This document shows, in pieces, positions 6,371-60,479 of a DNA stretch of 64,000 bases. The stretch lies in contig SVSY01000001.1 in NCBI GenBank assembly GCA_015064065.1, positions 1,460-65,459 of the forward strand. The letters run 5' to 3'. The stretch's first letter is position 1. Every line of letters begins with the position of its first letter. A program made the translations under genes and the position numbers. The stretch comes from Oscillospiraceae bacterium. GTDB taxonomy: Bacteria; Bacillota; Clostridia; Oscillospirales; CAG-272. The notes under the pieces are model-generated. The model was not told the DNA's origin. It worked only from the letters and a program-made list of their open reading frames with translations, and did not search any database.

Positions 6371-6703
6371 TCACTTTCTGTAATATACGTAGTGTGCGAC
6401 CACCGTACGCACCTTGCCGCCGCTATCGATATCCGGTCCCGTCAGCACGACACCGTCCTTGGAAAGAAGCTCCCATATCTGAAGCTCCTCGACCTTGCAT
6501 CTGAAAACAACGTTTGCCGAGGCGTAAACTATAAATTCGCCGTCGCGGATATTAAGACCGCCGTTTCGTCCGATGACCTCGTCGACCTCGCCGTCCTTTT
6601 TTTCGGTAACGTATTTTATATGCTGTCCTTCGACCGCACGCGCCATTTCCCAACGAAATTTCTTGCTGTTAGGGTCGCTTTTTTTCTTCCCGAAAAGTCC
6701 CAT
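6371..6703 (-). CDS. Hypothetical 110-aa protein with no family recognised
   Basis: GGAGG RBS lies 4 nt before the ATG at 6703, 11 nt after the GH13 stop; its stop is 4 nt before the tadA ATG; no motif I can name. Confidence 0.6.
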   Translation of the reverse strand: MGLFGKKKSDPNSKKFRWEMARAVEGQHIKYVTEKKDGEVDEVIGRNGGLNIRDGEFIVYASANVVFRCKVEELQIWELLSKDGVVLTGPDIDSGGKVRTVVAHYVYYRK

Positions 6704-6714
6704 ACTGCCTCCGA

Positions 6715-8619
6715 TCAAACTCTGCGTAATATAGAAAAGCTCAATGCGCCGACCGAGCCGCGATAAGTCTCACCGCTCACAAGGTCGCGCCATTCTCCGT
6801 CAAGCTTATAGCCTGACGAGCGTCCGCCCGCGTTGGCGATAACGCATATCTCTCCGCTGTTTGAGCGTCTTGAATATACGATAAGTCCGCCCTTTGCGTG
6901 CTTTAGCGAAAACTCACCGTCTGCAAGCACGTCGCGGTTTTGCACTCTGATCGCTCCAAGCATTCTATAGTGCGCCAAGAGCTCACCGTCTTCTCTGCCC
7001 CACGGATAAGGCCTTCTGCAGAAGGGATCGCGATAGCCCTCTACGCCCGCCTCGTCGCCGTAATACACCGACGGGACACCGTATACCGTAAACTGAAGTG
7101 CCGAGGCAAGCTTGAGCATCTCTGCCGCTTTTCTTCTTTCCTCTTCGTCAAGCTGTTTTTTCGCAAGCATACTGCCCGCATCACTGCACACAGCCGCATC
7201 CTGCTTTCCGAGCACGGTAAGTATTCGTTCGGTATCGTGCGTGCCGAGGATATTCATAAGCGAGTCGCTCACACACTTAGGATAGCTCGAATATATCGAC
7301 TTAAGCGTATCCGCGAGCGCGTTCGCATTACGTTTTATAACGAAGTCGAGCACCGCGTTCCTGAAAGGATAGTTCATAACGCTGTCAAGCTGACCGCCGC
7401 GAAGATATCTGCGCCGTTTTCCGTACGCTATCTTCGTAGCCGCGTTTTCCCACACCTCGCCGATAACTACGGCCTCGCCGCCGCTTGCCGATCTTACGCT
7501 GTCGCAAAATTCATCCAAGAATTCATCCGAAAGCTCGTCCGCAACGTCAAGCCTCCAGCCTGCGATACCCTTTTTTATATAATGAGCTCCAACGCCGTCT
7601 TTATCCGTAAAAAATCGGCGGCAGCTCTCGTTTGCGTGATCAAGTCGCGGCAATATCTTAATGCCCCACCAAGACTCAAAATCGTCTCTGTCCTTGCCAA
7701 ATCTGTACCAGTCGCGATATTTCGAGTCGGGCAAGGTATATGCCCCGTCTCCGCCGTATTCGCCGTAGCGGTCGAAATATCGGCTGTTATCTCCCGTGTG
7801 ATTAAATACGCCGTCGAGAATTATTTTTATACCGAGTTCATTTGCTTTATCGACGAGTGCATCAAACGCCGCCTCGCCACCAAACATTGCGTCGATCTCA
7901 AAATAATCACCCGTGTCGTATTTGTGATTTGAGTATGCTCTGAATATCGGGTTCAAGTACAAAACTCCCACGCCCATACTCTTGAGATACTCAAGCTTTT
8001 CGGCAACGCCCCACAGATTTCCGCCGAAGAACATATTGTTCTTAACGTCCTGACCGGGTATCTCCGCATACTGCGGCACGCCGCCGTACCAATCGTCATT
8101 CATTATGACGTCGTCCCTTTTGCCTACCTCGCCCTCGCCTATCGCAAAGCGATCGACGAATATCTGATACATCGTACTGCCCCAGAACCACTCGGGCGTT
8201 TTGAGATCTTTTTTGTGTATCAAAAGCAAGAAGCGGTTTTTCGGGTGCGCTGTAAGCAAAAAGTCCACGTTATTATGCGTGTTTGTGAAAAGCGTATCAA
8301 GTCCGCGCAAAAACAGTATCTCATAAAAAAATATACCGTCCTCTTCCTCACCGCACAAAGCCGCGGTATCGATACAAAGAGTATAGATATCGGCCACTCC
8401 GTCGGTAGAAGTAAAAGAAAACGGATAGTCACGGTCATTTTCTCCGTCCTTACATATGCGCAAGACTACCGCCGAAGCACCGAGTTTTCTCGGTGCTTCG
8501 ACAATAAATTCGGGATATTCACCGTACGCAAAGCTTCCTCTTGCCGAAACGTCGGTACCGTTTATTCTTTTTTTTAAGATCGGCGTACATTTCGCCCAAT
8601 CGGCTATTTGAACAAGCAT
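6715..8619 (-). CDS. GH13 alpha-glucan hydrolase (neopullulanase / cyclomaltodextrinase / debranching-type)
   Basis: All four GH13 regions are intact: DGVFNHTG, GWRLDVADE, IGEVWE, LGTHDTER; no signal peptide. Confidence 0.85.
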   Translation of the reverse strand: MLVQIADWAKCTPILKKRINGTDVSARGSFAYGEYPEFIVEAPRKLGASAVVLRICKDGENDRDYPFSFTSTDGVADIYTLCIDTAALCGEEEDGIFFYEILFLRGLDTLFTNTHNNVDFLLTAHPKNRFLLLIHKKDLKTPEWFWGSTMYQIFVDRFAIGEGEVGKRDDVIMNDDWYGGVPQYAEIPGQDVKNNMFFGGNLWGVAEKLEYLKSMGVGVLYLNPIFRAYSNHKYDTGDYFEIDAMFGGEAAFDALVDKANELGIKIILDGVFNHTGDNSRYFDRYGEYGGDGAYTLPDSKYRDWYRFGKDRDDFESWWGIKILPRLDHANESCRRFFTDKDGVGAHYIKKGIAGWRLDVADELSDEFLDEFCDSVRSASGGEAVVIGEVWENAATKIAYGKRRRYLRGGQLDSVMNYPFRNAVLDFVIKRNANALADTLKSIYSSYPKCVSDSLMNILGTHDTERILTVLGKQDAAVCSDAGSMLAKKQLDEEERRKAAEMLKLASALQFTVYGVPSVYYGDEAGVEGYRDPFCRRPYPWGREDGELLAHYRMLGAIRVQNRDVLADGEFSLKHAKGGLIVYSRRSNSGEICVIANAGGRSSGYKLDGEWRDLVSGETYRGSVGALSFSILRRV

Positions 8620-8645: not shown

Positions 8646-11078
8646 TCATTTATCTGTAAGTCTCTTTATGCCCCAAATATTTTCGGCATATTCGTTTATC
8701 GAGCGGTCAGCCGCAAAGAATCCCGATGCCGCGATGTTCATAAGCGACATACGGTTCCACTTTTCCTTGTTTGCATAGTCTGTAACTGCCTTCTCGTGAG
8801 TCATTCTGTAGGACTCGAAATCTGCAAGGCACATATAGGGGTCAGCCACTCCGGGACCCTTGGTAAGATAATTTGCTATATCCGCGAAGGACTCGCCTGC
8901 AAAGCCGATAGTGAGCGCGTTTATGATGCGCTGTATCTTCTGATTGCAGGTATAGAATTCTGCGCTGTTATATCCTCTCTGCCAGAGATCGTCGACCTCA
9001 GCGCTTGTAAGACCGAAGATATACATATTATCTCTTCCCGCCTCTGCAAGCATCTCAACGTTTGCTCCGTCGAGCGTACCGATGGTCATTGCACCGTTCA
9101 TCATAAGCTTCATACAGCCCGTGCCGCTCGCTTCTTTACCTGCCATAGAGATCTGTTCACTGATCTCAGCCGCAGGAACGAGAGCCTCAGCCATACTTAC
9201 GTTGTAATCCTCAAGGAAGGATACGGCAAGCTTCTTGGAGGCAACGGGGTCTTTCTCTATTTCTTTACCGAGGCAGTATATAAGGTTTATTATACGCTTA
9301 GCGTGGTAATAACCGGGGGCTGCCTTAGCACCGAAGAGGAAGCTTATAGGCTGGAAGTCGACGTTGGGATTATCCTTGATGTCAAGGTAAAGTCCAATAA
9401 TATTTAGAACGTTAAGAAGCTGTCTCTTGTACTCGTGCAGACGCTTGATCTGTACGTCGAACATAGAGTGGGTATCGATGAGCTTTCCTGTCTTGCGGTA
9501 AAGCAGATTGGAAAATTCGATCTTATTCTGATGCTTGATAGCTCTTACACGCTCAAGCACGTCCTTATCGTCGGCATAGCGTGCGAAATTATTGAGCTCG
9601 ATAGGATTGTGACGGTATCCCGTTCCTATAGTCTCGTCGAGAAGTCCTGCAAGCTTGGGGTTAGAATAGCAGAGCCAACGGCGATGTGCTATACCGTTCG
9701 TAACGTTTCCAAATCTCTCAGGATACATAGCGTAGAAGTCCTTAAAGATAGACTTTTTGAGAATATCAGAGTGGAGCTTGGACACGCCGTTTACGTAATG
9801 AGATCCAACTACACAAAGATTAGCCATATGCACCTGACCGTAGCCTACGATACTCATCTTGGAAATTCTGTTCCAGTTTCCGGGGAAAGCATTCCAAGCA
9901 TCTCGGCAGAAGCGCTCGTTGATCTCCTTGATAATAGTGTAAATTCTGGGCAATCTGAGCTTGAAGAGATCCTCATTCCACTTCTCAAGTGCCTCGGGCA
10001 TTACTGTGTGGTTAGTATAAGAGCATATCTTAACTACCATATCCCAAGCTCTGTCCCAAGAAATAAAGTATTCGTCGATGAGTATTCTCATAAGCTCGGG
10101 GATACAGAGTGCGGGATGAGTGTCGTTGATGTGTATTGCGATCTTGTCAGCAAGATTGTCTATAGTTCCGTAAACTGCCATATGGTCGTGAATGATGCTC
10201 TGGCAGGACGCAGATACCATAAAATACTGCTGTGTGAGTCTGAGAAGCTTTCCTTCAAGGTGGTTATCGGAGGGATAGAGCACCTTAGAGATAGTCTCTG
10301 CGTTAGTGCTCTCCTCTACCGCTCTTGCGTACTGTCCCTGAGTAAAAAGACTCATATTGAAGTTTCTGATGTCTCTCGCCTTCCAAAGACGGAGTCTGCT
10401 GACAGCCTTACTGTCCGCACCCGAGATCATCATATCGTAAGGCACTGCCTCAATAGTCTCGCAATCCTCGTAGATGACCTCCATATGACCCTCGCGCCAT
10501 TCTTCGCGGACGTGTCCGCCCATCTTTACCTGAAAAGCGCGGTCGGTTCTCGGAACGAGCCATACCTCGCCTCCGGGAAGCCATACGTCAGGAAGCTCTA
10601 CCTGAATTCCGTCAACGATCATCTGCTTGAAAAATCCGTATTCGTAGCAGATAGAAAATCCTGTTGCGGGATAGTCGAGAGATGCAAGCGAGTCCATAAA
10701 GCAAGCGGCAAGTCTTCCCAGACCGCCGTTTCCCAGACCCGCATCCGGTTCACATTCAAAAAGCTCGTCGAGATCTACTCCGTAATCACCGAGAGCCGCG
10801 CGATATTCCTCGGAAAGACCGAGGTTGCCAAGGCTCGTCTTGAGCGATCTGCCAAGCAAAAATTCCATACACATATAATAAACGCGCTTTGATTTCGTAT
10901 CGTTTACCTCGTGCTTGAAATCGTTTCTTTTTGAAGTAAGCATATCTCTGACTGTCATAGAGACTGCTTTGTACATCTGATCCTTAGATGCTTCTGTAGG
11001 TGTGCATCCGAAATATCTCGACAGCTTTGTTTCGATATTATCCTTCACCTGCAATTTGGTAAGTGCTGTGTTTTCCAT
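8646..11078 (-). CDS. glgP: Glycogen/maltodextrin phosphorylase
   Basis: GT35 length and PLP-lysine motif EASGTGCMKLMMNGA. Start set at MENTALTK; the track start at 11114 is a TTG inside a hairpin, and the start remains uncertain. Confidence 0.9.
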   Translation of the reverse strand: MENTALTKLQVKDNIETKLSRYFGCTPTEASKDQMYKAVSMTVRDMLTSKRNDFKHEVNDTKSKRVYYMCMEFLLGRSLKTSLGNLGLSEEYRAALGDYGVDLDELFECEPDAGLGNGGLGRLAACFMDSLASLDYPATGFSICYEYGFFKQMIVDGIQVELPDVWLPGGEVWLVPRTDRAFQVKMGGHVREEWREGHMEVIYEDCETIEAVPYDMMISGADSKAVSRLRLWKARDIRNFNMSLFTQGQYARAVEESTNAETISKVLYPSDNHLEGKLLRLTQQYFMVSASCQSIIHDHMAVYGTIDNLADKIAIHINDTHPALCIPELMRILIDEYFISWDRAWDMVVKICSYTNHTVMPEALEKWNEDLFKLRLPRIYTIIKEINERFCRDAWNAFPGNWNRISKMSIVGYGQVHMANLCVVGSHYVNGVSKLHSDILKKSIFKDFYAMYPERFGNVTNGIAHRRWLCYSNPKLAGLLDETIGTGYRHNPIELNNFARYADDKDVLERVRAIKHQNKIEFSNLLYRKTGKLIDTHSMFDVQIKRLHEYKRQLLNVLNIIGLYLDIKDNPNVDFQPISFLFGAKAAPGYYHAKRIINLIYCLGKEIEKDPVASKKLAVSFLEDYNVSMAEALVPAAEISEQISMAGKEASGTGCMKLMMNGAMTIGTLDGANVEMLAEAGRDNMYIFGLTSAEVDDLWQRGYNSAEFYTCNQKIQRIINALTIGFAGESFADIANYLTKGPGVADPYMCLADFESYRMTHEKAVTDYANKEKWNRMSLMNIAASGFFAADRSINEYAENIWGIKRLTDK

Positions 11079-11164: not shown

Positions 11165-12613
11165 TTAGTTGCTCCAAAGCGGAGAATAGAGGTCAAGATA
11201 GCGCTGTGCAGATACCTTCCAAGAGAAATCTATGCGCATTATCTTGCCTAAGAACTTACGGCGAAGCTCCTCGTTGCACCAGAGGTCTATCGCTGCGTCG
11301 GTACGCTCTTCAAGCTCGTAAGAGCTGTAGTTGGCAAAGGTAAATCCGTTGCCCTTTATTTCGTTTCCGTCCATCCAGAAGCCCTTTATCGAGTCGTAAA
11401 GTCCTCCTGTCTCTCTTACTACGGGAATTGCACCGTAGCGCGATGCGATCATCTGAGAAAGTCCGCAAGGCTCGCTCTTTGAGGGCATCATAAAGATATC
11501 GCTCGCCGCGTATATTCTCTTAGAGAGATCTCTGTCATAGGTAATAAGTGCTCTGACCTTGTCGGGATAGGTCTTTTCAAGTCCTCTGAAGAAGGTCTCG
11601 TATTCTCCCTCTCCCTTGCCGAGAACGACGAACTGAACGTCTCTCTCTCCTATGAGCTTATATATCATCATAGTGACCAGATCAAGTCCCTTATGCGATG
11701 CAAGTCTTGATATGAGCGAGATAACGGGTACGTCTTCTCTTTCGGGAAGTCCGAGCTCCTTTTGGAGTGCGAGCTTGTTTTCGTATTTTTTGTTAAGCGA
11801 GCGCCAAGTGTAATTTTTAGCGATCGCTTTATCTGCTGACGGATCGTAATAATTATAATCTATTCCGTTGAGTATTCCCGAAAGCTTATCTTTTGACTCG
11901 CGGAGTATTCTGTCAAGTCCGTGTGCGTATTCGGGTGAGCATATCTCCTCCGCGTATCTCTGGCTTACGGTCGTAACGAGATCTGCACAGGTTATAGCGC
12001 CCTTCATAAGATTGATACAGCCGTCGTACTCAACGATGTGTTTCGATCTTTCGTCAAGGTCGAAAACGTCACCGAGTATCGCAAAATCGTATTTGCCCTG
12101 ATACTCTATGTTATGGATAGTAAACACCGTTTTGATATTTTCGTATCCGCTGATACCTCTGAACTTTTCGTTGATATAAACGAGAGTCAGCGCGCTTGAC
12201 CAATCGTGTGCGTGAACGACGTCGGGATAGTATCCGACGAGCATAGGAAGCTCTGCGGCAACCTTGGAGAAATAAGCGTATCTTTCGCCCTCGTCCATAT
12301 ATCCGTAGAGCGTATCTCTATCAAAATAATACTTATTATCGACGAAATAATAGGTAACTCCGTCCTTGACGAGCGAGTATATTCCGCAATACTGACGTCT
12401 CCAGGCAAGCTCGATCTCGCCCTCAAAGACCTTAGTCATCTGTGCACGGTAGGTGCTCGAAACTGCGCGGTAAAGCGGCATTACGACCCTTACGTCCACC
12501 TCTCCCTTGCCTGCTTCGATTATAGACGAAGGCAGCGAGCCGAGAACGTCACCGAGTCCTCCGGTGGCTGCAAAGGGCATTGCCTCTGCACCGACAAACA
12601 ATAATTTCTTCAT
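11165..12613 (-). CDS. glgA: Glycogen synthase (GT5)
   Basis: N-terminal FVGAEAMPFAATGGLGDV (KTGGL motif reads ATGGL), HAHDW, SRLASHKG, SEPCGLSQ, ETGGL. Confidence 0.9.
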   Translation of the reverse strand: MKKLLFVGAEAMPFAATGGLGDVLGSLPSSIIEAGKGEVDVRVVMPLYRAVSSTYRAQMTKVFEGEIELAWRRQYCGIYSLVKDGVTYYFVDNKYYFDRDTLYGYMDEGERYAYFSKVAAELPMLVGYYPDVVHAHDWSSALTLVYINEKFRGISGYENIKTVFTIHNIEYQGKYDFAILGDVFDLDERSKHIVEYDGCINLMKGAITCADLVTTVSQRYAEEICSPEYAHGLDRILRESKDKLSGILNGIDYNYYDPSADKAIAKNYTWRSLNKKYENKLALQKELGLPEREDVPVISLISRLASHKGLDLVTMMIYKLIGERDVQFVVLGKGEGEYETFFRGLEKTYPDKVRALITYDRDLSKRIYAASDIFMMPSKSEPCGLSQMIASRYGAIPVVRETGGLYDSIKGFWMDGNEIKGNGFTFANYSSYELEERTDAAIDLWCNEELRRKFLGKIMRIDFSWKVSAQRYLDLYSPLWSN

Positions 12614-12639: not shown

Positions 12640-13770
12640 TCAGACCATAGCACCCTTTGAGATAAAGAAGGGCATGCTTTCGTGACCCGAGAGCACTCTA
12701 TTGTTTCTTATAACAACGTTCTTATCGGTTATCACGCAATTGAGCGATACGTTAGTTCCCGTAAAGGTATCCTGAAGAAGAATAGAATTCTTTACGACAG
12801 TTCCCTTACCTACGTGAACACCTCTGAATATGATAGAGTTCTCAACAGTTCCCTCTATCACGCAACCGTCAGCCACGTAGGAGTTGATCACCTTAGAGCC
12901 GTTTGCATATACGGTAGGAGCGGAATTGCGAAGCTTTGTATATATTGGGCTTTCCTTAACAAAAAGTCCGTTTCTGACTTCGGGATCAAGAAGCTGCATA
13001 GAGCATCTGAAATAGCTTTCGAGCGAGGTGATCTGCAAATATATTCCGTCGTAATGGTAGCAATTTATTCTCGCGCTCTTAACTCTGCGTGCTATGATAT
13101 CCTTATAAAAATGGTTATATCCGTGTGCGCTTGCGTCGTTTATAGCGTTGAGAAGGAAGAGTCTGTTTGCGATGATTATATTTGTGCTTATCTCTGCCGA
13201 GCGGTCGTAATCGATATAAGCCGACACCTCGGTAGCAAAGCCGTCAGCGTTGCACTTTATCTCGGTAGCACCGTCGCTGGGTATCTCCTTTTTAAAGTTT
13301 ACCGTTCTGGTTACGATAGTAACGTCGGCATTCTTCTCGATATGATCCTCAAGAACTTTATTGAGATCGATGCTGCAGATACCGTCGCAATCCGAAAGCA
13401 CGATATATTCCTCGCTGCACTTGGAGATAAAGCCCGTAACACCCATCAAAGCCTCAAGTCTCGTTGAGTAGAGCTTGCCTCCGTTTGCGCTGTTATAGCT
13501 CGTGATAAAGGGAGGAAGTATTCTTATACCGCCCGAACGGCGTGCAAGATCCCAGTCCTTACCCGTACCGATGTGGTCCATAAGAGACTGATAGTTATTA
13601 TGCGTAATAATACCTATTTTAGTTATACCCGAATTTACCATATTGGAAAGCGGGAAGTCGACGAGACGGTAACGGCAACCGTAAGGCACTGATGCCATAG
13701 TTCTGACGCTCGTCAGCTCGGGCATTGAAGAATTGTGAATGTTAGAAAATATCAAACCTGCTACTGACAT
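12640..13770 (-). CDS. glgD: Glucose-1-phosphate adenylyltransferase, GlgD subunit
   Basis: GlgC paralogue lacking the GGxGxRL loop, with left-handed beta-helix C-terminus; sits between glgC and glgA as in Firmicutes. Confidence 0.85.
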   Translation of the reverse strand: MSVAGLIFSNIHNSSMPELTSVRTMASVPYGCRYRLVDFPLSNMVNSGITKIGIITHNNYQSLMDHIGTGKDWDLARRSGGIRILPPFITSYNSANGGKLYSTRLEALMGVTGFISKCSEEYIVLSDCDGICSIDLNKVLEDHIEKNADVTIVTRTVNFKKEIPSDGATEIKCNADGFATEVSAYIDYDRSAEISTNIIIANRLFLLNAINDASAHGYNHFYKDIIARRVKSARINCYHYDGIYLQITSLESYFRCSMQLLDPEVRNGLFVKESPIYTKLRNSAPTVYANGSKVINSYVADGCVIEGTVENSIIFRGVHVGKGTVVKNSILLQDTFTGTNVSLNCVITDKNVVIRNNRVLSGHESMPFFISKGAMV

Positions 13771-13774
13771 TATC

Positions 13775-14980
13775 TTACGCCTCCTTTACAAGATCGGAGC
13801 TGTTGTTTATCATCGCTCCGTCGGCAACTGCCGTACCTGCGGGAACGGTTATTCCCGTTCCGATAACTGCAATTCCCTTTGCAGCCGAACGCTCCTTACC
13901 TACGGTGCTGTTTTCGCTGACCGTAACTCCAGAGTCGAGTATCGCGTAATTGACCTTCGCACCTGCTTCGATAACGCAATCGTCCATAATTACCGAGTCA
14001 ACGACCTCTGCGCCTGCCATTACGACGACGCCGGAGCCGAGAACCGAATTGCGTACCGTTCCGTATATATCACAGCCCTCTGTAATGCTGCTGTTTTCTA
14101 TAATCGCATCAGGTCCGACGTACTGAGGAGAGTGAGCCGAGTGTCTCGAGAATATTCTCCAAGACTCGTCGCCAAGATTGAATACAGGCTCTTCTCCGAG
14201 AAGATCCATATTTGCCTCCCAAAGAGAATCAATAGTTCCAACGTCCTTCCAATATCCGCTGAAGGAATATGCGTACATTCTCTCGCCGTTTGCAAGCATA
14301 GCGGGGATTATGTTCTTTCCAAAGTCGTTAGAGCTGTTAGGATCTGCGGCGTCTTCATTGAGATACTTGAACAAGCAGTCCTTAGAAAAGATATAAATTC
14401 CCATCGAAGCCTTCGTGCTGTCGGGATTCTTGGGCTTCTCTGCGAACTTATATATTCTGCCTTCGTCGTCAACGCTCATAATGCCGAAGCGGCTTGCTTC
14501 TTCTATCGGAACGTCGATGACCGCTATGGTGCAATCAGCATTCATCTTCTTGTGGTGCTGAAGCATCTTGTCATAGTTCATTCTGTATATGTGGTCACCC
14601 GAGAGTATTATAACGTAGTCGGGAGAATACATATCGATAAACTGCATATTCTGGTATATGGCATTCGCCGTGCCCTTATACCAATCCGCACCGTTCTTGC
14701 CCTGATACGGTGGCAAGATCTTAACTCCGCCTATAGCTCTGTCAAGATCCCACGGAAGTCCGTTACCAACGTAGTCGTTAAGCACAAGAGGCTGATATTG
14801 AGTAAGAACTCCTACGGTATCAACTCCTGAATTGATACAGTTAGAGAGTGGGAAATCGATAATTCTGTACTTTCCTCCAAAGGATACGGCAGGCTTTGCC
14901 GTTTTCTCGGTAAGTGCATAAAGGCGGCTTCCCTGACCGCCCGCAAGGAGCATAGCAACACATTCTTTCTTTTTGAACAT
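13775..14980 (-). CDS. glgC: Glucose-1-phosphate adenylyltransferase
   Basis: [10 protein letters not shown]...[24 protein letters not shown]; GGAGGA RBS before the ATG at 14980, so the track start at 15025 is judged too long. Confidence 0.9.
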
Positions 14981-15078: not shown

Positions 15079-16860
15079 TTATTTATCGCCTATAGGCTTA
15101 AGTATAACGAATGAAAGCGGCGGAATATCTATCTTCAGCATTCCGTCAGATGCTTTCTTCAGCTTAAGTGCTCCGTTTCCTCCAAATCGCAGGTCGTCGG
15201 AATCAAATACCGCCTCGCACATTCTGTCGCCGCATTTGAGCATATAGCCCTCCCGCGCTTCCGCCGAGAAATTTATCACGACGTAAAGTCTGTTTTGGTC
15301 GTCGGCTCTGCGCTCGTATGCCAAGATAGCTCTGTCTGCATCTATCAACGAAAATCCGTCGGCTAAGGCGTCCTTCTTCCACAGAGCAGACTCTGCAAGA
15401 TAGAAATGATCGAGCTCTGCAACGAATCGCTGGAATTTTGCGTGCGTTTCGTATTCAAGCAAGAACCATTCCACTTCTCCGTCGTGATCCCACTCGCGAA
15501 AATGTCCGATCTCGTATCCCATAAAATTCAACTTTTTTGCGGGATAGGTCATCATATATCCGAGAAAGGCTCTCGCACCCGCGAATTTCTGCCAATAATC
15601 GCCCGACATCTTGTCAAGGAAGGAACGCTTTGTGTGCACCACCTCGTCGTGCGAGATCGAAAGCATATATCTTTCTCTTGCGCGATATGTGATCGGATAT
15701 ATCAATTTATCGGTTTGAGATATCTTGAGCGTATTATCAAGGCTTGCATATTCAAGCGAAGCATCGACCCAAGCCATATCCCATTTCATATCGAAGCCCA
15801 GACCTTCGTCCGTGCCTGTCATTTTTAGATCGGAGCTTTCTTCTGCTATCGTTATTACGTCGGGAAATTCTCGCTTTATCTGACGGTTTAATACTTTTAT
15901 AAGCTCAATTCCCGCCGCACGCTTTTGGGTCTTGCCCGAATCGATATACAAAAGAGACGAAAGACCGCCGACCCTTATCCCGTCTATATGAAATTCTCTT
16001 ATCCAATACAGCACCGAAGATATAAGGAAGCTTCTTACCTCGTTTCGCTCAAGGTCGAAGCTTGCGACATCACCGTCATCATCTTTCTCGTAAAGCGGTG
16101 AGCCGTCGAAGCGATAAAGCCCGTGCTCGTCCTTCGGAAAGCCCAACATAGTAAAGTCGAGTATAACTCCGAGTCCCGCCTCGTGCATTGAGTCGACAAA
16201 GCTCTTGAAGTCGTTGACACCTCCGTAGCGCGCCGTCGGCGCAAAGAAGGAGCACACCTGATATCCCCACGACGCATCGTACGGATATTCTGCTATAGGC
16301 ATAAGCTGGACGTGAGTATATCCCATCTGCTTTGCGTAAGGAGCAAGCTCCCGCGCAAGCTCTGTATAGCCAAACGGAGTTCCGTCCTCGTGACGCTTCC
16401 ACGAACCGAGATGTATCTCGTACACGTTCATCGGCAGAGTGTAAAGCTCGGGCACGACCTTTTTTCTGAATGCGAGCCAACCGCCGTCTCTCCAAGTGTA
16501 TTCCTCCTCACTTGGAATAAGCGATGCCGTTTCGGGCATTTTATCGGTACGTCTCGCATAGGGATCTGCTTTATAGCAAACGTTGCCGTTTCCGTATATC
16601 TTAAATTTATACCTTTTTTGTGCAGCTATTTTCGCACCCTCCACAAAGGTCTCCCAAACGCCTCCCGCAGTCACCTTATAAAGACGCGTATCCTCGCTCC
16701 AGCCGTTAAAATCTCCGACAAGGAATACTTTTTGCGCGTTCGGCGCAAAAACTCTGAAAACGTAGCCGCTTCCGGTTTTATGCACGCCAAGGTAATCCTC
16801 TGAGGTATAGTTTGTCCCCTCGTGGAAGAGATACGCTGCCATTTCATTCTGCGTTCTCAT
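15079..16860 (-). CDS. glgB: 1,4-alpha-glucan branching enzyme homologue (GH13/CBM48) with substituted catalytic residues
   Basis: Full-length similarity to GlgB (AEES, SHDEVVH retained), but region II reads IDGIRVGGLSS and region I reads ILDFTMLGFPKD; first gene of the glg operon. Confidence 0.85.
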   Translation of the reverse strand: MRTQNEMAAYLFHEGTNYTSEDYLGVHKTGSGYVFRVFAPNAQKVFLVGDFNGWSEDTRLYKVTAGGVWETFVEGAKIAAQKRYKFKIYGNGNVCYKADPYARRTDKMPETASLIPSEEEYTWRDGGWLAFRKKVVPELYTLPMNVYEIHLGSWKRHEDGTPFGYTELARELAPYAKQMGYTHVQLMPIAEYPYDASWGYQVCSFFAPTARYGGVNDFKSFVDSMHEAGLGVILDFTMLGFPKDEHGLYRFDGSPLYEKDDDGDVASFDLERNEVRSFLISSVLYWIREFHIDGIRVGGLSSLLYIDSGKTQKRAAGIELIKVLNRQIKREFPDVITIAEESSDLKMTGTDEGLGFDMKWDMAWVDASLEYASLDNTLKISQTDKLIYPITYRARERYMLSISHDEVVHTKRSFLDKMSGDYWQKFAGARAFLGYMMTYPAKKLNFMGYEIGHFREWDHDGEVEWFLLEYETHAKFQRFVAELDHFYLAESALWKKDALADGFSLIDADRAILAYERRADDQNRLYVVINFSAEAREGYMLKCGDRMCEAVFDSDDLRFGGNGALKLKKASDGMLKIDIPPLSFVILKPIGDK

Positions 16861-16892
16861 TTTACCATCCACTCTATTAAGTTTTCAAAGCC

Positions 16893-17195
16893 TTATTCGT
16901 ATTCTCCGTAGAATATTATCTCATCGGGGAAACACATTCCAAGCTTTTCGCGTGCTATGCGTATCTTAAAATCGTCGTCAAGCGGAGCTTCAACAAGATA
17001 CTCAAGTCTTTGTATATCGTCCTTGAGCTTATTGACATATTCCTGCTTTTCGACCTTTTTCTCCATCGCCTCGTTGTACTGCATAATACTCCAGAGGAAA
17101 TAGACGAAAGCAAATATCAGCAAAAAAACGAGAAAAGCGCGTATAACAACGAAGGACTTGCTTTTTTTATCGGCAAAATACTTGTTTTTATTCAT
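16893..17195 (-). CDS. divIC: Septum formation initiator family protein (DivIC/FtsB-like)
   Basis: 100 aa with an N-terminal TM helix then a coiled coil; follows yabP-yabQ as in B. subtilis. Confidence 0.7.
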   Translation of the reverse strand: MNKNKYFADKKSKSFVVIRAFLVFLLIFAFVYFLWSIMQYNEAMEKKVEKQEYVNKLKDDIQRLEYLVEAPLDDDFKIRIAREKLGMCFPDEIIFYGEYE

Positions 17196-17833
17196 CCGCC
17201 ATTCTCCTTTTTTTTGATATGAAGTGAAGTTTTTAGATCTGCAAAACGAGAGCCCTTCGGCTCATCCTCGTTTGCAAACACTCCTCCGTCTATATTATAC
17301 AACTTTTTTCTCTTTTTTTCAAGAGTAAAACTATACAAAGAATTGATTTTTTTTACAAATTCATATAATATATAGCCAAATTTTAAAAAAGGTGCGCAAA
17401 ATAATATAAAAATCGACACTGCAAGGTAGCGAAACACTACCACAAGCGGCTCTGCTACGAGCATCACCAACCGCCCGAGCGTATATTTATAAACAAAAAA
17501 TCCCGCAAGAACTCCGAGCACCGTAAAAAAGCGAAATCTTCCGCTGTTGTACGAGTAGTTTAAAACTATTATCCCTGCCGTGCAAAAAAGGACGCATAAG
17601 ATATCTCCAAAAAAGGTTACTGCGCTTTGCCAAACGCTTTCGCTCTTGGGAGCAAGCGTTCTTTTTATTATCGGCAATCTCCACGCCTCTATGCGCTTAT
17701 ATCCTCTTTTTGAATATCTTTTCCCCGCAAGTACCCTCAGCATTCTGCACCCGTCGTAAAACATTCCGACGATCGCGCCAAAGAAAAATGAATACAGTAA
17801 TAAGAGAGACAGAATTACCTGAGATATTTCCAT
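17192..17833 (-). CDS. yabQ: Spore cortex biosynthesis membrane protein YabQ
   Basis: Polytopic ~213-aa protein between yabP and divIC; ATG at 17833 lies 1 nt after the yabP stop. Confidence 0.65.
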   Translation of the reverse strand: MEISQVILSLLLLYSFFFGAIVGMFYDGCRMLRVLAGKRYSKRGYKRIEAWRLPIIKRTLAPKSESVWQSAVTFFGDILCVLFCTAGIIVLNYSYNSGRFRFFTVLGVLAGFFVYKYTLGRLVMLVAEPLVVVFRYLAVSIFILFCAPFLKFGYILYEFVKKINSLYSFTLEKKRKKLYNIDGGVFANEDEPKGSRFADLKTSLHIKKKENGG

Positions 17834-41195: not shown

Positions 41196-41240
41196 TCAAA
41201 AAAATAGGCACACGCGCCCAATATGAGTACGTGTGCTCTA
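41196..41240 (-). terminator. Rho-independent terminator after rplA
   Basis: GCACACG / CGTGTGC stem (extendable with one bulge), followed on the minus strand by T7. Confidence 0.65.
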
Positions 41241-41255
41241 TTTTATAAGCTTAAA

Positions 41256-41942
41256 TTAGCCGAGCTTTGCCTGATTTACCTTGATGCCGGGACCCATCGT
41301 GCTTGCGATAACGCAGCTCTTGATGTACTGACCCTTAGCAGCAGCAGGCTTTGCCTTGATTACTGCGCCTACGAGGGTGTCGAAGTTCTCGGAGAGCTTC
41401 TCAACGCCGAAGGATGCCTTACCGATCGGGCAGTGGATGATGTTGGTCTTGTCGAGACGGTACTCGATCTTACCTGCCTTAGCCTCAGTAACTGCCTTTG
41501 CAACGTCGGGGGTAACGGTTCCTGCCTTAGGAGAAGGCATAAGTCCCTTAGGACCGAGGACCTTACCGAGCTTACCGATAACACCCATCATATCGGGGCT
41601 TGCGATAACTACGTCGAAATCGAACCAGTTTTCCTGAGCGATCTTCTCTGCGTACTCTGCGCCGCCTGCGTAATCTGCGCCTGCGTCAAGAGCTGCCTGA
41701 ACCTTATCGCCCTTTGCGAATACGAGGACCTTTACGTTCTTACCGGTTCCGTTGGGGAGAACTACTGCTCCTCTGACCTGCTGGTCAGCGTGACGGGAGT
41801 CAACACCGAGACGGATGTGTATTTCGATGGTCTCGTCAAACTTTGCCTTAGAAGTCTGGCATACGAGGTCAAGTGCCTCTGCAGGATCATAAGCCTTGCT
41901 TCTGTCAACGAGCTTTGCGCTGTCAATATATTTCTTTCCCAT
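41256..41942 (-). CDS. rplA: 50S ribosomal protein L1
   Basis: Full-length L1 sequence, 228 aa. Confidence 0.95.
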
Positions 41943-41956
41943 TGTGTTCAGCCTCC

Positions 41957-42382
41957 TCAGTCTTCAACTTCTACGCCCATGCTGCGAGCTGTACCTGCGA
42001 CCATGCTCATAGCGGTCTCGATGCAGGAAGCGTTGAGGTCGGGCATCTTTGTTTCTGCGATCTTGCGTACCTGTTCCTTGGTGAGCTTTGCTACCTTGGT
42101 CTTGTTAGGCTTTGCAGAACCGGACTCGATTCCTGCTGCCTTCTTGATAAGAACGGGAGCGGGAGGAGTCTTGGTGATAAACGTAAAGGAGCGGTCAGCG
42201 TAAACAGTGATAACTACAGGGATGATAAGACCCATGTCGTTCTTAGTTCTCTCGTTGAATTCCTTTGTAAATACGGGAATTGCAACACCGTACTGACCAA
42301 GTGCCGGACCTACGGGGGGCTGAGGAGTTGCCTTTCCGGCGGGCAACTGCAACTTGATATAGCCCATAACTTTCTTTGCCAT
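41957..42382 (-). CDS. rplK: 50S ribosomal protein L11
   Basis: [30 protein letters not shown], 141 aa. Confidence 0.95.
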
Positions 42383-43323: not shown

Positions 43324-43485
43324 TTACTTAGATTCTTTGTGAAGAGTGTGCTTGCGGCAGAATCTGCAGTACTTCTTAAGCTCAAGTCTGTCAGGATCGT
43401 TCTTTTTGTTCTTCTTCGTGTCGTAATTTCTCTGCTTGCACTCGGTGCATACCAGAGTAATCTTAACTCTTGCATCATTAGCCAT
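43324..43485 (-). CDS. rpmG: 50S ribosomal protein L33
   Basis: Hand translation gives [53 protein letters not shown] (CxxC...CxxC); GGAGGTG RBS; 53 aa, so absent from the ORF track. Confidence 0.9.
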
Positions 43486-43643
43486 TTTAGCGGCACCTCC
43501 ATTTTCAAAATATTTAACCGTTCGAAGCGCAAGCGCCTCAGCGGTCAGTGTGTACCTCCCTCACCGAGCAGTGTGCAACGATGCCTCTCGGCTATGGCGC
43601 GTACCATTGCACAACAAAAAAGCCTACTCGCAGAGGTATCGCT

Positions 43644-43672
43644 ATTATACCACTTTTGCAACCGCGTGTCAA
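43644..43672 (-). promoter_or_regulatory. Consensus sigma-A promoter of rpmG-secE-nusG
   Basis: On the minus strand: TTGACA (43672-43667), exactly 17 nt, TATAAT (43649-43644) with TGn; ~150-nt leader to the rpmG ATG. Confidence 0.65.
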
Positions 43673-43723
43673 GGCTTTTTTAAAAGTTTTTTTAGTTTTT
43701 TTCAATATATCCTTCGCAAACGT

Positions 43724-43744
43724 CAAAAGGGGCGTACGCCCCTC
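43724..43744 (-). terminator. Short GC-rich terminator after the acidic-protein gene
   Basis: AGGGGC GTAC GCCCCT hairpin followed on the minus strand by TTTTG. Confidence 0.55.
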
Positions 43745-43756
43745 TTGATATTCTTA

Positions 43757-44212
43757 TTATTCGCCGTCGAGATCCTTAAGATCCTCTTCTGCGATTATGC
43801 ATTCAAACTTCTCACCGCAAGCGGGGCAAGCAAGCTCCTCGGGGTCTATGCTTCCGTCAAAGCAGATGACCTCACCGCAAGCGGGACATTCTACCTCGAA
43901 AAAGTCCTCGTCTGCAAGCTCGCAATCTTCGTCGCAATCGCAGCAATTGCCGTCACACTCAAAGTCGTCGTCATCACAGCAATCGCACTCATCGTCGTAA
44001 AGAAGCTCTTCTACGCTTCCAAGATCCTCGTCAAGCTCCTCAACGTAATCGTTGAGAGTATCGAGATCCTCGTCAAGCTGTTCGATAGCGTCCGCCATAT
44101 CTCCTACGAGATCGAGAAGAGCGGCAATAAGCTTGCCCTCCTTTGTGGTCTCGTCGAGCTCTACGCCGTCAGCAAGTCCCTGAATGTAAGCAGCCTTCTG
44201 TGCAAGTGTCAT
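43757..44212 (-). CDS. Highly acidic, cysteine-rich protein with C-terminal CPACG...CPACG zinc ribbon
   Basis: 151 aa, 54 Asp/Glu against 5 Lys with no Arg or His, and 14 Cys in the C-terminal half; GGAGG RBS placed directly after the efp stop. Confidence 0.6.
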   Translation of the reverse strand: MTLAQKAAYIQGLADGVELDETTKEGKLIAALLDLVGDMADAIEQLDEDLDTLNDYVEELDEDLGSVEELLYDDECDCCDDDDFECDGNCCDCDEDCELADEDFFEVECPACGEVICFDGSIDPEELACPACGEKFECIIAEEDLKDLDGE

Positions 44213-44227
44213 TACACTGACCTCCGA

Positions 44228-44785
44228 TTATGCTCTGGAGAGATATTCACCGGTTCTGGTGTCTATCTTGAGCACTTCGCCCTCGTTGATGAAGAGCGGG
44301 ACCTTGATAACGGCACCGGTCTCAAGAGTTGCGGGCTTGAGGGTGTTGGTTGCGGTGTTACCTGCAAAGCCGGGGTCGGTCTGAGTTACTGCAAGCTCTA
44401 CGAACGTGGGGGGTTCTACGCTGAATACGTTGCCCTTGTAGGAAACGATCTTGCACATCATCTCTTCCTTAACGAACTTGAAGCTTTCGGGAAGCTTGTC
44501 GCTGTTGAGAGGCTCCATCTCGAAGGTCTCCATATCCATGAAGTAATAAAGATCGCCGTCGTTGTAGGAATACTGCATCTCGCGTCTTTCGATCATAGCA
44601 TTCTCAAACTTATCGGTGGGGTTGAAGGTTCTCTCGACAACTGCCCCGGTGATAACGTTTCTGATCTTTGTACGTACAAAAGCTGCTCCCTTTCCGGGCT
44701 TTACGTGCTGAAATTCAACGACCTGGTAAGCCACGCCGTCCATATCAAAAGTAATACCGTTCTTAAAATCGCCTGCTACTACCAT
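44228..44785 (-). CDS. efp: Elongation factor P
   Basis: [17 protein letters not shown] loop with the conserved Lys; 185 aa; GGAGG RBS. Confidence 0.95.
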
Positions 44786-44831
44786 TATTTTTTACCTCCA
44801 AAAGTAAATCTGATTTTTTTCATACGCATTC

Positions 44832-44860
44832 ATTATACCGCATATTCTCAAAAATTTCAA
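44832..44860 (-). promoter_or_regulatory. Sigma-A-type promoter of efp
   Basis: On the minus strand: TTGAAA, 17 nt, TATAAT. Confidence 0.55.
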
Positions 44861-45012
44861 GAGTTTTTTGCATTTTTCTTAAAATCTTTATAACTTTTTT
44901 TAAAATCGCGGTGCTTTTGCAAAAAAAGCTCTTTTTCAGCCGTTATTTTGCTTAAATAATCGGTTCTTTTTATTTTTTTATTGTACATAATTGCTCAAAA
45001 TTCAAAATTTCG

Positions 45013-54382: not shown

Positions 54383-55372
54383 ATGAGATTTCATTTTTCA
54401 AAAAAGAAGGTGCAAGGAGTGCGTCGCTCGCGCGCACTGTCCTTGCACAAGTGCTGTTCTATAGAAAAAATAAGCTCGCTGAGGACGACCGATGAAAAGG
54501 AACGAATAGACCTTTTCGGTGTTTTTGAAGAAGACGCGCCAAAAAAGAGAAGCTCTTTTCTCAAAAAGCTAAAAAAAGCCTTTAGCGTTTTCTTTCACAA
54601 AAAACGACGACCGCCCGCAAATACCGCACGCATCTTCGGTGCTGTATGCGGAGCTTTTGCTCTTACGCTTTGCGCAGGTATATCTACCGTTGCTCTGCTT
54701 TTCGGCAGATACGCGGGAAGCTATACCGAAGTGGTCATTCCCTCTTTCGTTTCGCTTTCTTCAGACGAGGCGCTCGCAACTCAAAGCGAGCTGTTTGAAT
54801 ATTCGCTCTCTTACAGCTTTGACCCTGAGCGCGAAGCGAACGAGATAATATCGCAAGCCCCATCGCCGAACGTAATACGCAAGCTCTATTCAAAAGATCA
54901 AAAAATACGGATCCTTCTCACAGTCAATAAGCCAAAAGAGGATTTCATACTTCCCAAAACGGTAGGTACGCGTACGCGCGATGCCGAGCTGATGCTAAAA
55001 AACGCAGGCGTCGACGCGATCTTGCTTCAAGAATATTCCGACACCGTCCCTCAGGGCACGGTAATATCTTGCTCGCACGTTGCGGGCACGGCATTAAAAG
55101 AGGGAGAGAGGGTCATACTGACCTCAAGCAAAGGTCCTAAGATGCGTTACGTTCAAATGCCCGACCTCGTCGGACTTTGCGAGAGCGAGGCTATAGAACG
55201 CTTAAACGCTCTTGCTTTAAAAGTCGGCAGCATAACCTACTCGGCATCAGGTCTTGCGGCGGGTACTGTGATATCCCAAAGCCAAAAAGCAGGAGATATG
55301 CTTGCCGAAAGAACGGCGATATCGCTGACGGTAAGCGCGGGAAGATATTTTAACACAGATGACAGACACTAA
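54383..55372 (+). CDS. Membrane protein with three extracellular PASTA domains and no kinase domain
   Basis: ~90-aa basic N-terminus, one TM helix (IFGAVCGAFALTLCAGISTVALLF), then three PASTA-like repeats (e.g. PDLVGLCESEAIERLNALALKVGSITY...ISLTVSAG); AGAGGTG RBS. Confidence 0.7.
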   Translation: MRFHFSKKKVQGVRRSRALSLHKCCSIEKISSLRTTDEKERIDLFGVFEEDAPKKRSSFLKKLKKAFSVFFHKKRRPPANTARIFGAVCGAFALTLCAGISTVALLFGRYAGSYTEVVIPSFVSLSSDEALATQSELFEYSLSYSFDPEREANEIISQAPSPNVIRKLYSKDQKIRILLTVNKPKEDFILPKTVGTRTRDAELMLKNAGVDAILLQEYSDTVPQGTVISCSHVAGTALKEGERVILTSSKGPKMRYVQMPDLVGLCESEAIERLNALALKVGSITYSASGLAAGTVISQSQKAGDMLAERTAISLTVSAGRYFNTDDRH

Positions 55373-58526: not shown

Positions 58527-60479
58527 ATGTCAAACCGTTTTTTACCCGTTACGGCACAGGAAATCAAAGAGCTCGGCTGGGACAGACCCGATTTCGTCTA
58601 CGTCTGCGGTGACGCATACGTCGACCACCCCTCGTTCGGCGCGGCGATAATCACGCGCGTGCTTGAGGCGGCAGGCTTCAGAGTCGCATTCCTCGCCCAA
58701 CCCGACTACAAAAGCTGTGACGATTTCAAAAGATTCGGCAAACCGCGTCTTGCTTTTCTCGTTTCTGCGGGAAATATAGACTCTATGGTCGCGCACTACA
58801 CTGCCGCAAAGAAAAAACGCTCCTCGGATTACTATTCCCCCGGCGGAAAAGCGGGCAAACGTCCGGACAGAGCTACTATAGTATACTGCAACCGCATACG
58901 TGAGGCGTACGGTGACGTTCCGATAATTCTCGGCGGGCTTGAAGCCTCTCTGCGCCGCTTCGCGCATTACGATTATTGGTCGGACAGCATTCGCCGCTCG
59001 GTCCTCGTCGACAGCCGTGCAGATATACTCACCTACGGAATGGGCGAAAATATCCTTTTGCGTATTGCTGAGCTTCTCGACCGCGGCGTTCCCGTAAAGA
59101 AGATTCGCGACGTCAGAGGAACTGTATATCTCTGCTCCGAGGGAGAAAAGGTACACTATCCCGTAGCGGCAGAATTTGACTACGACGTGCTTAAAACAGA
59201 TAAGAAAAAATATGCCGAAGCGTTCGGAATACAGTACAAAAATCAGGACTCTATCAACGGAAAGGCGATAATCGAGCACTACGACGGAAAGATATTGGTA
59301 CAAAATCCTCCTATGCCCCCGCTTGAACGCGAGGAGCTTGACAGAGTCTACGCTCTGCCCTATATGCGTACCTATCACCCGAGCTACGAAGCCGAAGGCA
59401 GAGTTCCCGCTATAGAGGAGGTCCGCTTCTCGCTCACTCACAACCGAGGTTGTTTTGGAGGCTGTAACTTCTGTGCACTTGCCTTTCATCAGGGCAGAAC
59501 GGTTCGCTCGCGCAGTATCGAGAGCGTAGTGGCAGAGGCTAAAAAGATAACCGAGATGCCCGATTTCAAGGGCTATATCCACGACGTCGGCGGTCCGACG
59601 GCAAATTTCAGATATCCCGCCTGTGAAAAACAGCTCCGCGACGGCGTCTGCTCGGCGCGTAAGTGCTTAGCTCCCACACCCTGCAAAAATCTCGTTGCCG
59701 ACCACTCGGAATATATAAAGCTTATCGAGAGCATCGAATCGCTCCCAAAGGTCAAAAAAGTATTTATCCGTTCGGGAATACGCTTTGACTATCTGCTCGC
59801 CGACCCCGACGACAGCTTTTTCAAAAAGCTTGTCCGCGACAACGTCAGCGGTCAGCTCAAGGTCGCGCCCGAGCACTGCTCCTCTGCGGTGCTTCGCTGT
59901 ATGGGTAAGCCGGAGTTCTCGGTCTATGAAAAGTTCCGCAAGCGCTATTTTGAGCTTACAAAATCCATAGGCAAGGAACAATATCTCGTTCCCTATCTTA
60001 TGTCGAGTCACCCCGGCTCAACGCTTGCCGATGCGCTCGAGCTTGCAATATGCCTCAAGCGCGACCATTACGCTCCCGAGCAGGTTCAGGACTACTATCC
60101 CACACCCGGCACAGCCTCAACCGTAATGTTCTACACGGGGATAGATCCGCTCACTATGAAGAAGGTGTACGTGGCTACCGACTATCACGAAAAACAGCTG
60201 CAGCGCGCGCTTCTTCAATACAACCGACCGCAGAACGCTCCGCTCGTTCGCGAAGCGCTTATAAAGCTCGGCCGCGAGGACCTTATAGGCTTCGGGCCCG
60301 AATGTCTCGTGCGCCCCGAGCGCACGGCGCAGGAGCAAAAAAAGAGTCCTTCGCGCAAAGGACAGCAGACAAAAGGCAGCAAAAATCAAACTTCACCCTC
60401 AAAAAACAAACGCACGGCTGTGCCTAAAGACACGCGCAAGCCGAGCGATAAAAATAACAGACAAAGGAGAAAGAAATGA
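58527..60479 (+). CDS. ygiQ: YgiQ family (UPF0313) radical SAM protein
   Basis: NRGCFGGCNFCAL cluster motif, conserved N-terminal DAYVDHPSFG region, Lys/Arg/Gln-rich ~60-aa tail. Confidence 0.88.
   Translation: MSNRFLPVTAQEIKELGWDRPDFVYVCGDAYVDHPSFGAAIITRVLEAAGFRVAFLAQPDYKSCDDFKRFGKPRLAFLVSAGNIDSMVAHYTAAKKKRSSDYYSPGGKAGKRPDRATIVYCNRIREAYGDVPIILGGLEASLRRFAHYDYWSDSIRRSVLVDSRADILTYGMGENILLRIAELLDRGVPVKKIRDVRGTVYLCSEGEKVHYPVAAEFDYDVLKTDKKKYAEAFGIQYKNQDSINGKAIIEHYDGKILVQNPPMPPLEREELDRVYALPYMRTYHPSYEAEGRVPAIEEVRFSLTHNRGCFGGCNFCALAFHQGRTVRSRSIESVVAEAKKITEMPDFKGYIHDVGGPTANFRYPACEKQLRDGVCSARKCLAPTPCKNLVADHSEYIKLIESIESLPKVKKVFIRSGIRFDYLLADPDDSFFKKLVRDNVSGQLKVAPEHCSSAVLRCMGKPEFSVYEKFRKRYFELTKSIGKEQYLVPYLMSSHPGSTLADALELAICLKRDHYAPEQVQDYYPTPGTASTVMFYTGIDPLTMKKVYVATDYHEKQLQRALLQYNRPQNAPLVREALIKLGREDLIGFGPECLVRPERTAQEQKKSPSRKGQQTKGSKNQTSPSKNKRTAVPKDTRKPSDKNNRQRRKK

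Follow-up and report, generated by a model that had tools for sequence, protein, structure and literature searches.

A GlgB homologue without the catalytic nucleophile, maintained by purifying selection in the glycogen operon of Oscillospiraceae

Can the branching-enzyme gene of a glycogen operon lose its catalytic nucleophile and still be maintained by selection? This question is raised by the first gene of the glg operon, denoted here glgB', in a 64,000-nucleotide stretch of the Oscillospiraceae contig SVSY01000001.1 (hereafter the window; all positions refer to it). The gene (15079-16860, minus strand) encodes a 593-amino-acid GlgB-like protein (NCBI MBE6592373.1). An earlier note, made from the letters of the window, had described it as a glgB homologue lacking the nucleophile and the region I histidine of GH13 enzymes in an unbroken frame of about 593 codons, and the frame is indeed intact, with 593 codons and no stop or frameshift (a second possible start, GTG, lies at 16872). 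In the retaining enzymes of GH13, the region II aspartate forms the covalent glucosyl intermediate, and the region I histidine stabilises the −1 subsite. We find that glgB' is kept by purifying selection and that it is one mild case of a recurrent loss in Oscillospiraceae, not an isolated oddity. Its sequence further suggests that the protein is probably a pseudoenzyme retained for a non-catalytic role, most likely glucan binding.

The catalytic columns were assigned by pairwise HMMER comparison with solved branching enzymes, by a 119-sequence MAFFT alignment (117 homologues and E. coli GlgB) and by hmmalign, again with E. coli GlgB included, and the three methods gave identical results (E. 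coli GlgB numbering is used for all catalytic-site and glucan-binding positions). In region II (HIDGIRVGGLSSL; 15952-15990, minus strand), R403 is kept but the nucleophile D405 is Gly: compared with the canonical HIDGLRVDAVAS, the protein reads HIDGIRVGGLSS, with the changes D405G, A406G and V407L, and the nucleophile codon is GGC at 15969-15967. Region I (16129-16158, minus strand) reads DFTMLGFPKD versus the canonical DWVPAHFPKD, with D335 kept and with W336F, V337T, P338M, G339L and H340G, the Gly codon of the latter being at 16143-16141. The counterpart of W336 in the Cyanothece branching enzyme is W399, which contacts the donor chain (PMC10254366). The β3-α3 loop (EKDDDGDVAS; 16060-16089, minus strand) is shortened by a 7-residue deletion, with W370 and the G-T segment gone, and an 11-residue deletion past β4, just after region II (YIDSGKT^QKRAA, deletion at the caret; 15913-15948, minus strand), removes the equivalents of E. 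coli G420, W422, P424, N425 and G428. Region III (TIAEESS; 15832-15852, minus strand) retains the acid/base glutamate E458, and region IV (SHDEVVH; 15634-15654, minus strand) retains H525 and D526; together with Y300, D335 and R403, 6 of the 8 catalytic-site positions are kept. The description of regions I to IV and of the shortened loop in the earlier note thus holds throughout, with Gly at the nucleophile column by codon and by alignment; the 11-residue deletion and an altered KWNMGWMNDT motif are features beyond it. Of the 239 columns of the MAFFT alignment in which conservation reaches at least 97% among the 117 nearest homologues (2 of which were later found to be degenerate themselves), 74 are changed in the glgB' clade.

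The likeness to GlgB noted earlier is also evident at the level of domains and fold. Pfam detects in the protein CBM48 (2e-19), Alpha-amylase_C and the alpha-amylase domain, the last only as its N-terminal part (residues 174-236). The architecture is that of canonical GH13_9 GlgB (E. coli 1M7X/4LPC, Cyanothece BE1 5GQU and Rhodothermus 8ZQA), with the same CBM48, (β/α)8 barrel and C-terminal β-domain, at 35-38% identity and in the same first position of the glgBCDAP operon. An AlphaFold2 (AF2) model keeps the branching-enzyme fold (predicted local distance difference test, pLDDT, 86; predicted template-modelling score, pTM, 0.90), and a Foldseek comparison of this model with solved branching enzymes gave TM scores of 0.87-0.93, with Cyanothece BE1 at 0.93. 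The protein shares with canonical GlgB regions III and IV, R403, D335, Y300 and the surface residues W159 and W586, and differs from it in the Gly at D405 and H340, in the loss of W336, W370, W422 and two loops, and in the KWNMGWMNDT motif. It passes the NCBIfam GlgB model NF008967 (score 620.7, cut-off 577) and TIGR01515 (521, cut-off 464) and falls below the cut-off of PRK05402 (605 versus 741). Because the scores of the first two family models exceed their cut-offs, the PGAP name is GlgB: the identical protein MBE6592373.1, from a metagenome-assembled genome (MAG) contig of Ruminococcaceae/Oscillospiraceae and present also in JGI, is named '1,4-alpha-glucan branching protein GlgB' in NCBI. 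As judged from its sequence, the protein retains the fold and domain architecture of GH13_9 together with E458, H525 and D526 and lacks D405 and H340 with the DWVPxH motif; with these defining catalytic features failing, it should not carry the annotation of an active GlgB.

If the active site has eroded, is the gene itself maintained? Among 5.8 billion clustered proteins, glgB' has only three close relatives (88, 75 and 74% identity), and the next match, at 58% identity, is canonical. The earlier note had asked whether orthologues carry the Gly and what ratio of nonsynonymous to synonymous substitution rates (dN/dS) the gene shows. The two deletions, D405G and a degenerate region I are common to all four orthologues, the window protein included, and the Gly-Gly at the nucleophile position (GGC codon) is identical in the four, while region I varies among them (TMLG, TMLA, NVLG and TLHG, with Gly or Ala at H340) and one orthologue, P0002, has Gln in place of E458. 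At least nine independent assemblies, representing the four diverged orthologues, carry these changes, and the gene order divIC-glgB'-glgC-glgD-glgA-glgP-GH13 is found on independent ENA and Logan assemblies. Within the clade, dN/dS, calculated by the Nei-Gojobori method, is 0.086-0.137. The corresponding values are 0.034-0.093 for canonical glgB pairs of sister lineages and 0.01-0.04 for the neighbouring genes in the same genomes, namely glgC, encoding ADP-glucose pyrophosphorylase (13775-14980; 0.03-0.04), glgD, a non-catalytic GlgC paralogue (12640-13770; 0.01-0.03), glgA, encoding glycogen synthase (11165-12613; 0.01-0.03), and glgP, encoding glycogen phosphorylase (8646-11078; about 0.02), all on the minus strand. 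The number of nonsynonymous differences in glgB' is far below the neutral expectation (binomial test, P from 1e-38 to 1e-58), and synonymous divergence (dS) within the clade reaches about 2, with the frame intact in four lineages. A unitary or fresh pseudogene is ruled out by the intact frame, by these dN/dS values and by the regional pattern of constraint described below. As a separate observation, canonical glgB is the least constrained of the glg genes here, with a nonsynonymous rate (dN) about 2-5 times that of glgC, glgD, glgA and glgP (pairs L011-L013, L018-L020 and L014-L016), which hints that branching activity is in general weakly selected in this family.

The constraint is distributed unevenly along the gene. 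We compared regional dN between the window and L001, both with dead GlgB, and between L011 and L013, with active GlgB, two pairs with equal divergence of the neighbouring genes. In the dead and active pairs, respectively, dN is 0.048 and 0.055 for CBM48, 0.030 and 0.030 for β1-β2, and 0.005 and 0.005 for β7-β8, as opposed to 0.087 and 0.019 for the catalytic face (residues 226-400), a 4-5 times higher nonsynonymous rate than in canonical GlgB, and 0.141 and 0.021 for the C-domain. Regional dN/dS in the glgB' clade is 0.01-0.02 in the most constrained segment, β7-α8 (residues 401-490; 15391-15660, minus strand), 0.10-0.13 in CBM48 (residues 24-102; 16555-16791, minus strand), 0.10-0.14 in the catalytic face and 0.23-0.33 in the C-domain. 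Relaxation is therefore limited to the parts that serve catalysis and to the C-domain. Selection still preserves CBM48, the barrel core and the β7-α8 segment, in which E. coli W544 (site V), W578 and W586 (site I) have their counterparts; CBM48 keeps 13 of 13 family-invariant positions, and its W54 corresponds to E. coli W159 of glucan site IV (positions of the E. coli glucan-binding sites are from PMC10254366).

The genomic neighbourhood identifies the gene from which this protein derives. On the minus strand, yabP-yabQ-divIC are followed by glgB'-glgC-glgD-glgA-glgP and a GH13 hydrolase gene, and at loci with canonical GlgB in GTDB genomes and metagenomes this neighbourhood is kept in full, from recJ and relA past divIC as far as GH13 and tadA. 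The gene order around glgB' matches that of genomes with canonical glgB throughout, which makes glgB' the positional orthologue of that canonical gene. The earlier note had proposed a maintained non-catalytic or mechanistically altered paralogue: the maintenance is borne out by the shared Gly, dN/dS and domain-specific relaxation, but paralogy is ruled out by the synteny. Evolution of the protein has been accelerated in place. The GlgC, GlgD, GlgA, GlgP and RelA proteins of the window are 84-96% identical to those of L009, L011 and L077, compared with 55-57% for GlgB, and the stem of the clade in neighbour-joining trees is 0.24 substitutions per site for GlgB versus 0.02 for GlgC, GlgD, GlgA and GlgP together. 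The GH13 hydrolase (6715-8619, minus strand), of the neopullulanase/maltodextrin-glucosidase type, has all four catalytic regions intact, as had been noted (DGVFNH, GWRLDVADE, GEVWE and GTHDTE), and occupies the same slot in relatives with canonical GlgB, so that it is no lineage-specific replacement. Given this type and the same slot beside canonical GlgB, substitution of the hydrolase for the branching enzyme is unlikely.

Degeneration of GlgB is not confined to the window clade. When 1.84 billion cluster representatives were scanned in full with phmmer, the complete catalytic set was present in 93 of the 150 best matches (P0154-P0303), whereas about 50 are degenerate and full-length, with about 600 amino acids, many of them much more eroded than the window protein. 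We give about 50, not 57, as the number, since P0157, P0159, P0205 and P0287 are alignment or fragment artefacts. Degenerate glgB with genomic context is found in five lineages, in each case as the leading gene of a glgBCDA operon, and catalytic erosion is graded from the window clade, with 2 of 8 positions lost, through P0171, L078 and L038 to L075. In the most eroded lineage, P0154/P0304 (L075/L076; catalytic string YSHF-EQR), the synteny is exactly that of the window and the amylase domain is undetected by Pfam, while the AF2 model of P0154 keeps the branching-enzyme fold (pLDDT 84, pTM 0.86); the neighbouring genes of L075 are mostly 78-92% identical to those of the window, as against 47% for GlgB'. 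The remaining lineages are L038 (JAFTQL01; YDGCGRHD), from a roe-deer caecum MAG; P0112/P0098 (L078-L080; YDCKSDHN), with pN/pS of 0.19 and dN/dS of about 0.06 between two members; and P0171 (L081/L082; YDCRGEHN), with a glgB'-glgC-glgD-glgA operon in a different Oscillospiraceae lineage. The deletions hit the same two active-site loops in all lineages, with different boundaries.

In trees of GlgC, GlgD and GlgA and of dtd, radSAM, spoVB, mazG and divIC, the degenerate lineages interleave with canonical ones, and therefore the catalytic residues of GlgB were lost independently at least three times, and probably five times. A single origin of the degenerate proteins is not supported, given the interleaved trees and the nearest relatives of P0171, all 119 of which are canonical. 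The best match of 50 of 67 degenerate sequences is likewise canonical, although this is a weak test because fast-evolving sequences are always nearest to slow ones, and a large degenerate cluster in one neighbour-joining tree may reflect long-branch attraction. Site retention, counted over 44-49 strongly degenerate representatives, is 96% for the CBM48 invariants and 0.96 for each of W159 (surface site IV) and W586 (surface site I), compared with 0.16 for W298, 0.06 for W370, 0.18 for W422, 0.07 for H340, 0.18 for D405 and 0.18 for D526.

How, then, could a GlgB without its nucleophile be useful? With D405, H340, W336 and two cleft loops lost, double displacement and branching would be abolished. 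The protein would bind α-1,4-glucan via CBM48 and surface sites matching E. coli sites I, IV and V, and would work within the glycogen or granulose machinery of the strongly constrained glgC-glgD-glgA-glgP genes, perhaps by scaffolding or chaperoning granules or growing chains, or by pairing with another enzyme. We infer the absence of branching activity, the glucan binding and the cellular role from sequence features: the first from the missing nucleophile, region I His, W336 and cleft loops, whereas the retained CBM48, barrel core and tryptophans of sites I and V make a glucan-binding pseudoenzyme the best-supported candidate. Unless the genome encodes a second branching enzyme elsewhere, the storage polymer would then have fewer branches or none. 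Neither a second branching enzyme nor a GH57 is encoded in the 64-kb window, and no second branching enzyme is found within 10 kb in L075, L038 and L081. In L020, a relative with canonical GlgB, a second CBM48/GH13 gene lies downstream of the glg operon, from about 20994, with no counterpart in the window; its product shares 33% identity with GlgB' and retains the catalytic D, and the gene is cut by the end of the locus. A broader and rather speculative proposal, to which we assign a low probability, is that Oscillospiraceae repeatedly dropped branching and kept GlgB as a granule glucan-binder around a store of granulose- or amylose-like α-glucan with few or no branches. This would imply a general non-catalytic role of GlgB, and the protein might act as a chaperone or scaffold for GlgA chains or in granule organisation in active GlgB too.

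Several observations weigh against a purely non-catalytic, recurrently lost GlgB. The catalytic face evolves at dN/dS of about 0.1, not 1, and Y300, D335, R403, H525 and D526, as well as E458 in three of the four members, are kept, so that the former cleft may still bind a ligand or retain some chemistry. The AF2 models of the glgB' protein and P0154 lean on alignments dominated by canonical homologues; the representative library, clustered at 50% identity, over-represents fast-evolving lineages; and a single loss might underlie both the window clade and L075, given the short internal branches of the neighbour-joining trees. An enzyme with an altered mechanism that dispenses with the covalent intermediate, glycosynthase- or phosphorylase-like or weakly hydrolytic, would account for the residual constraint on the cleft and for the 6 of 8 catalytic-site positions kept in the window protein: the cavity left by the Gly-Gly, invariant in the four orthologues, could admit an exogenous nucleophile or a β-configured donor, with E458, D526/H525, R403, D335 and Y300 in use. 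In its more radical variant, this proposal gives the Gly-Gly protein of the window clade a nucleophile-independent chemistry of the natural-glycosynthase kind. We consider it improbable, however, in view of E458Q in P0002, the freedom of region I to vary, the loss of W336, W370, W422 and two active-site loops, and the loss of the remaining catalytic residues in other lineages whose open reading frames (ORFs) stay intact, and because retention of five sites by chance is only weakly improbable (roughly estimated at about 0.1). To our knowledge, no natural GH13 enzyme of this kind is known.

The alternative that deserves more weight, although we regard it as doubtful, is that the product of glgB' serves, without catalysis of its own, as a regulatory subunit or partner of GlgA or of a second branching enzyme that is active, in the way of GlgD with GlgC and of ISA2 with ISA1. 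Redundancy with a second enzyme would have allowed repeated catalytic loss, for which the low constraint on canonical glgB in the family leaves room; gut Clostridia often have two or three glgB homologues (PMC10395257), and the 'FdBE2' of Faecalibacterium duncaniae in the PDB implies that one Oscillospiraceae species has at least two branching enzymes. The β7-α8 surface, at dN/dS of 0.01-0.02, would suit protein contacts no less than glucan binding. Against this, neither the window nor the surrounding 10 kb in the three other loci yielded a GH57 or another branching enzyme, and a partner subunit would in any case be a special case of a pseudoenzyme, not a contradiction of it. Decay, with the frame kept open only against polar effects on glgC-glgD-glgA or for want of time, is very improbable. 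It is true that glgB' heads the operon, has a nonsynonymous rate 5-20 times as high as the neighbouring genes and has an apparently weaker ribosome-binding site than glgC, but none of this sits well with dN/dS of 0.086-0.137 overall and 0.01-0.02 over 90 residues, with a CBM48 that evolves no faster than in active enzymes, with a frame that is uninterrupted in at least nine assemblies at a within-clade dS of 1-2, or with the ORFs of about 600 amino acids that are kept by far more degenerate lineages, with branch lengths of 0.47-0.53. The window does come from a metagenome-assembled genome, and a sequencing, assembly or alignment artefact could be suspected; this is ruled out for all practical purposes by the identical protein in NCBI and JGI, the same substitutions in independent ENA and Logan assemblies and the agreement of the three alignment methods.

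Pseudoenzymes with the GH13 fold are familiar from other systems. Chain C of PDB 9xvi, among the HMMER matches of the glgB' protein, is the plant isoamylase ISA2 in the ISA1-ISA2 debranching complex. ISA2 is a conserved non-catalytic GH13 subunit in storage-glucan metabolism and resembles glgB' as a homologue of a GH13 α-glucan enzyme that was conserved after loss of the catalytic residues; it is, however, a paralogue with an active partner, whereas glgB' is bacterial, recurrent and orthologous to the only glgB of its operon. The rBAT/4F2hc heavy chains, which have a GH13 fold without glycosidase activity and play a structural role in amino-acid transporters, differ in being eukaryotic and devoted to membrane transport, with no link to glucan metabolism. 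Closer at hand, GlgD, encoded two genes downstream, is an inactive relative of GlgC retained in the operon as a partner subunit (PMC10395257), and like glgB' it is a catalytically inactive glycogen-pathway relative kept in the same operon; yet it is an ancient, fixed paralogue beside GlgC, as opposed to the recent, repeated degeneration in place of glgB'. In the GlgA-GlgB fusion of Waddliaceae and Criblamydiaceae, the branching domain is inactive (Chem Rev 2024, PMC11046441), so that here too a bacterial branching-enzyme module is inactive yet encoded, but the GlgC-GlgA pathway of those bacteria is defective and replaced by GlgE, whereas glgC, glgD, glgA and glgP in the present operons are under very strong purifying selection. 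In literature searches we found no account of a catalytically dead GlgB in Firmicutes, and thus none of a stand-alone one that is under selection and has arisen repeatedly; the chlamydial fusion was the only precedent encountered (PMC11046441).

These findings bear on annotation and physiology alike. Pipelines label the dead proteins GlgB, and metabolic reconstructions of gut Clostridia will be led by such labels to infer, wrongly, the synthesis of branched glycogen. Repeated catalytic loss with the protein kept amounts to a natural experiment, in which branching would be dispensable and GlgB would have a selectable non-catalytic function, and the graded series of lineages maps the parts that would serve this second function, with CBM48, W159, W586 and the β7-α8 surface retained. 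If there is no second branching enzyme, abundant uncultured gut spore-formers would store a different polymer, with a bearing on the energetics of sporulation and on persistence. The organism of the window is itself a spore-former by its gene content, as Spo0A, SpoVB, YabP and YabQ are all encoded in the window.

Some further observations concern the neighbouring genes. In the lineage of P0003, glgD is represented by two ORFs (132 and 224 amino acids) in L004:5112-6255, compared with an intact gene of 376 amino acids in L005:5465-6595; the split reflects a frameshift in the assembly or else a glgD disruption that is segregating. The GH13 hydrolase evolves relatively fast, with 92% identity to L002 versus 99% for glgC, glgD, glgA and glgP and with dN/dS of about 0.10, and YabQ (17192-17833, minus strand) is also fast-evolving, at 80% identity to L001, where the genes on either side reach 96-99%, and at 37-62% to the remaining relatives in the comparison. 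A scan for promoters and terminators gave no signal over the shuffled expectation.

Elsewhere in the window, two ORFs of 326 and 485 amino acids (41223-42203 and 43436-44893, both on the plus strand) match no Pfam family even at E<=0.01, and an ORF of 1017 amino acids (60476-63529, plus strand) has a weak, partial-profile match to GH106 (α-L-rhamnosidase; 1.8e-10). Between rlmN and rsgA, where PrkC and PrpC are usually encoded, lies a gene for a 329-amino-acid protein (54383-55372, plus strand) with two C-terminal PASTA domains, no detected kinase domain and an N-terminal part of about 190 amino acids without any match. Finally, a 110-amino-acid ORF without a Pfam match (6371-6703, minus strand) is located between the GH13 hydrolase gene and tadA, and its position and length are kept in L002, L075 and L077.

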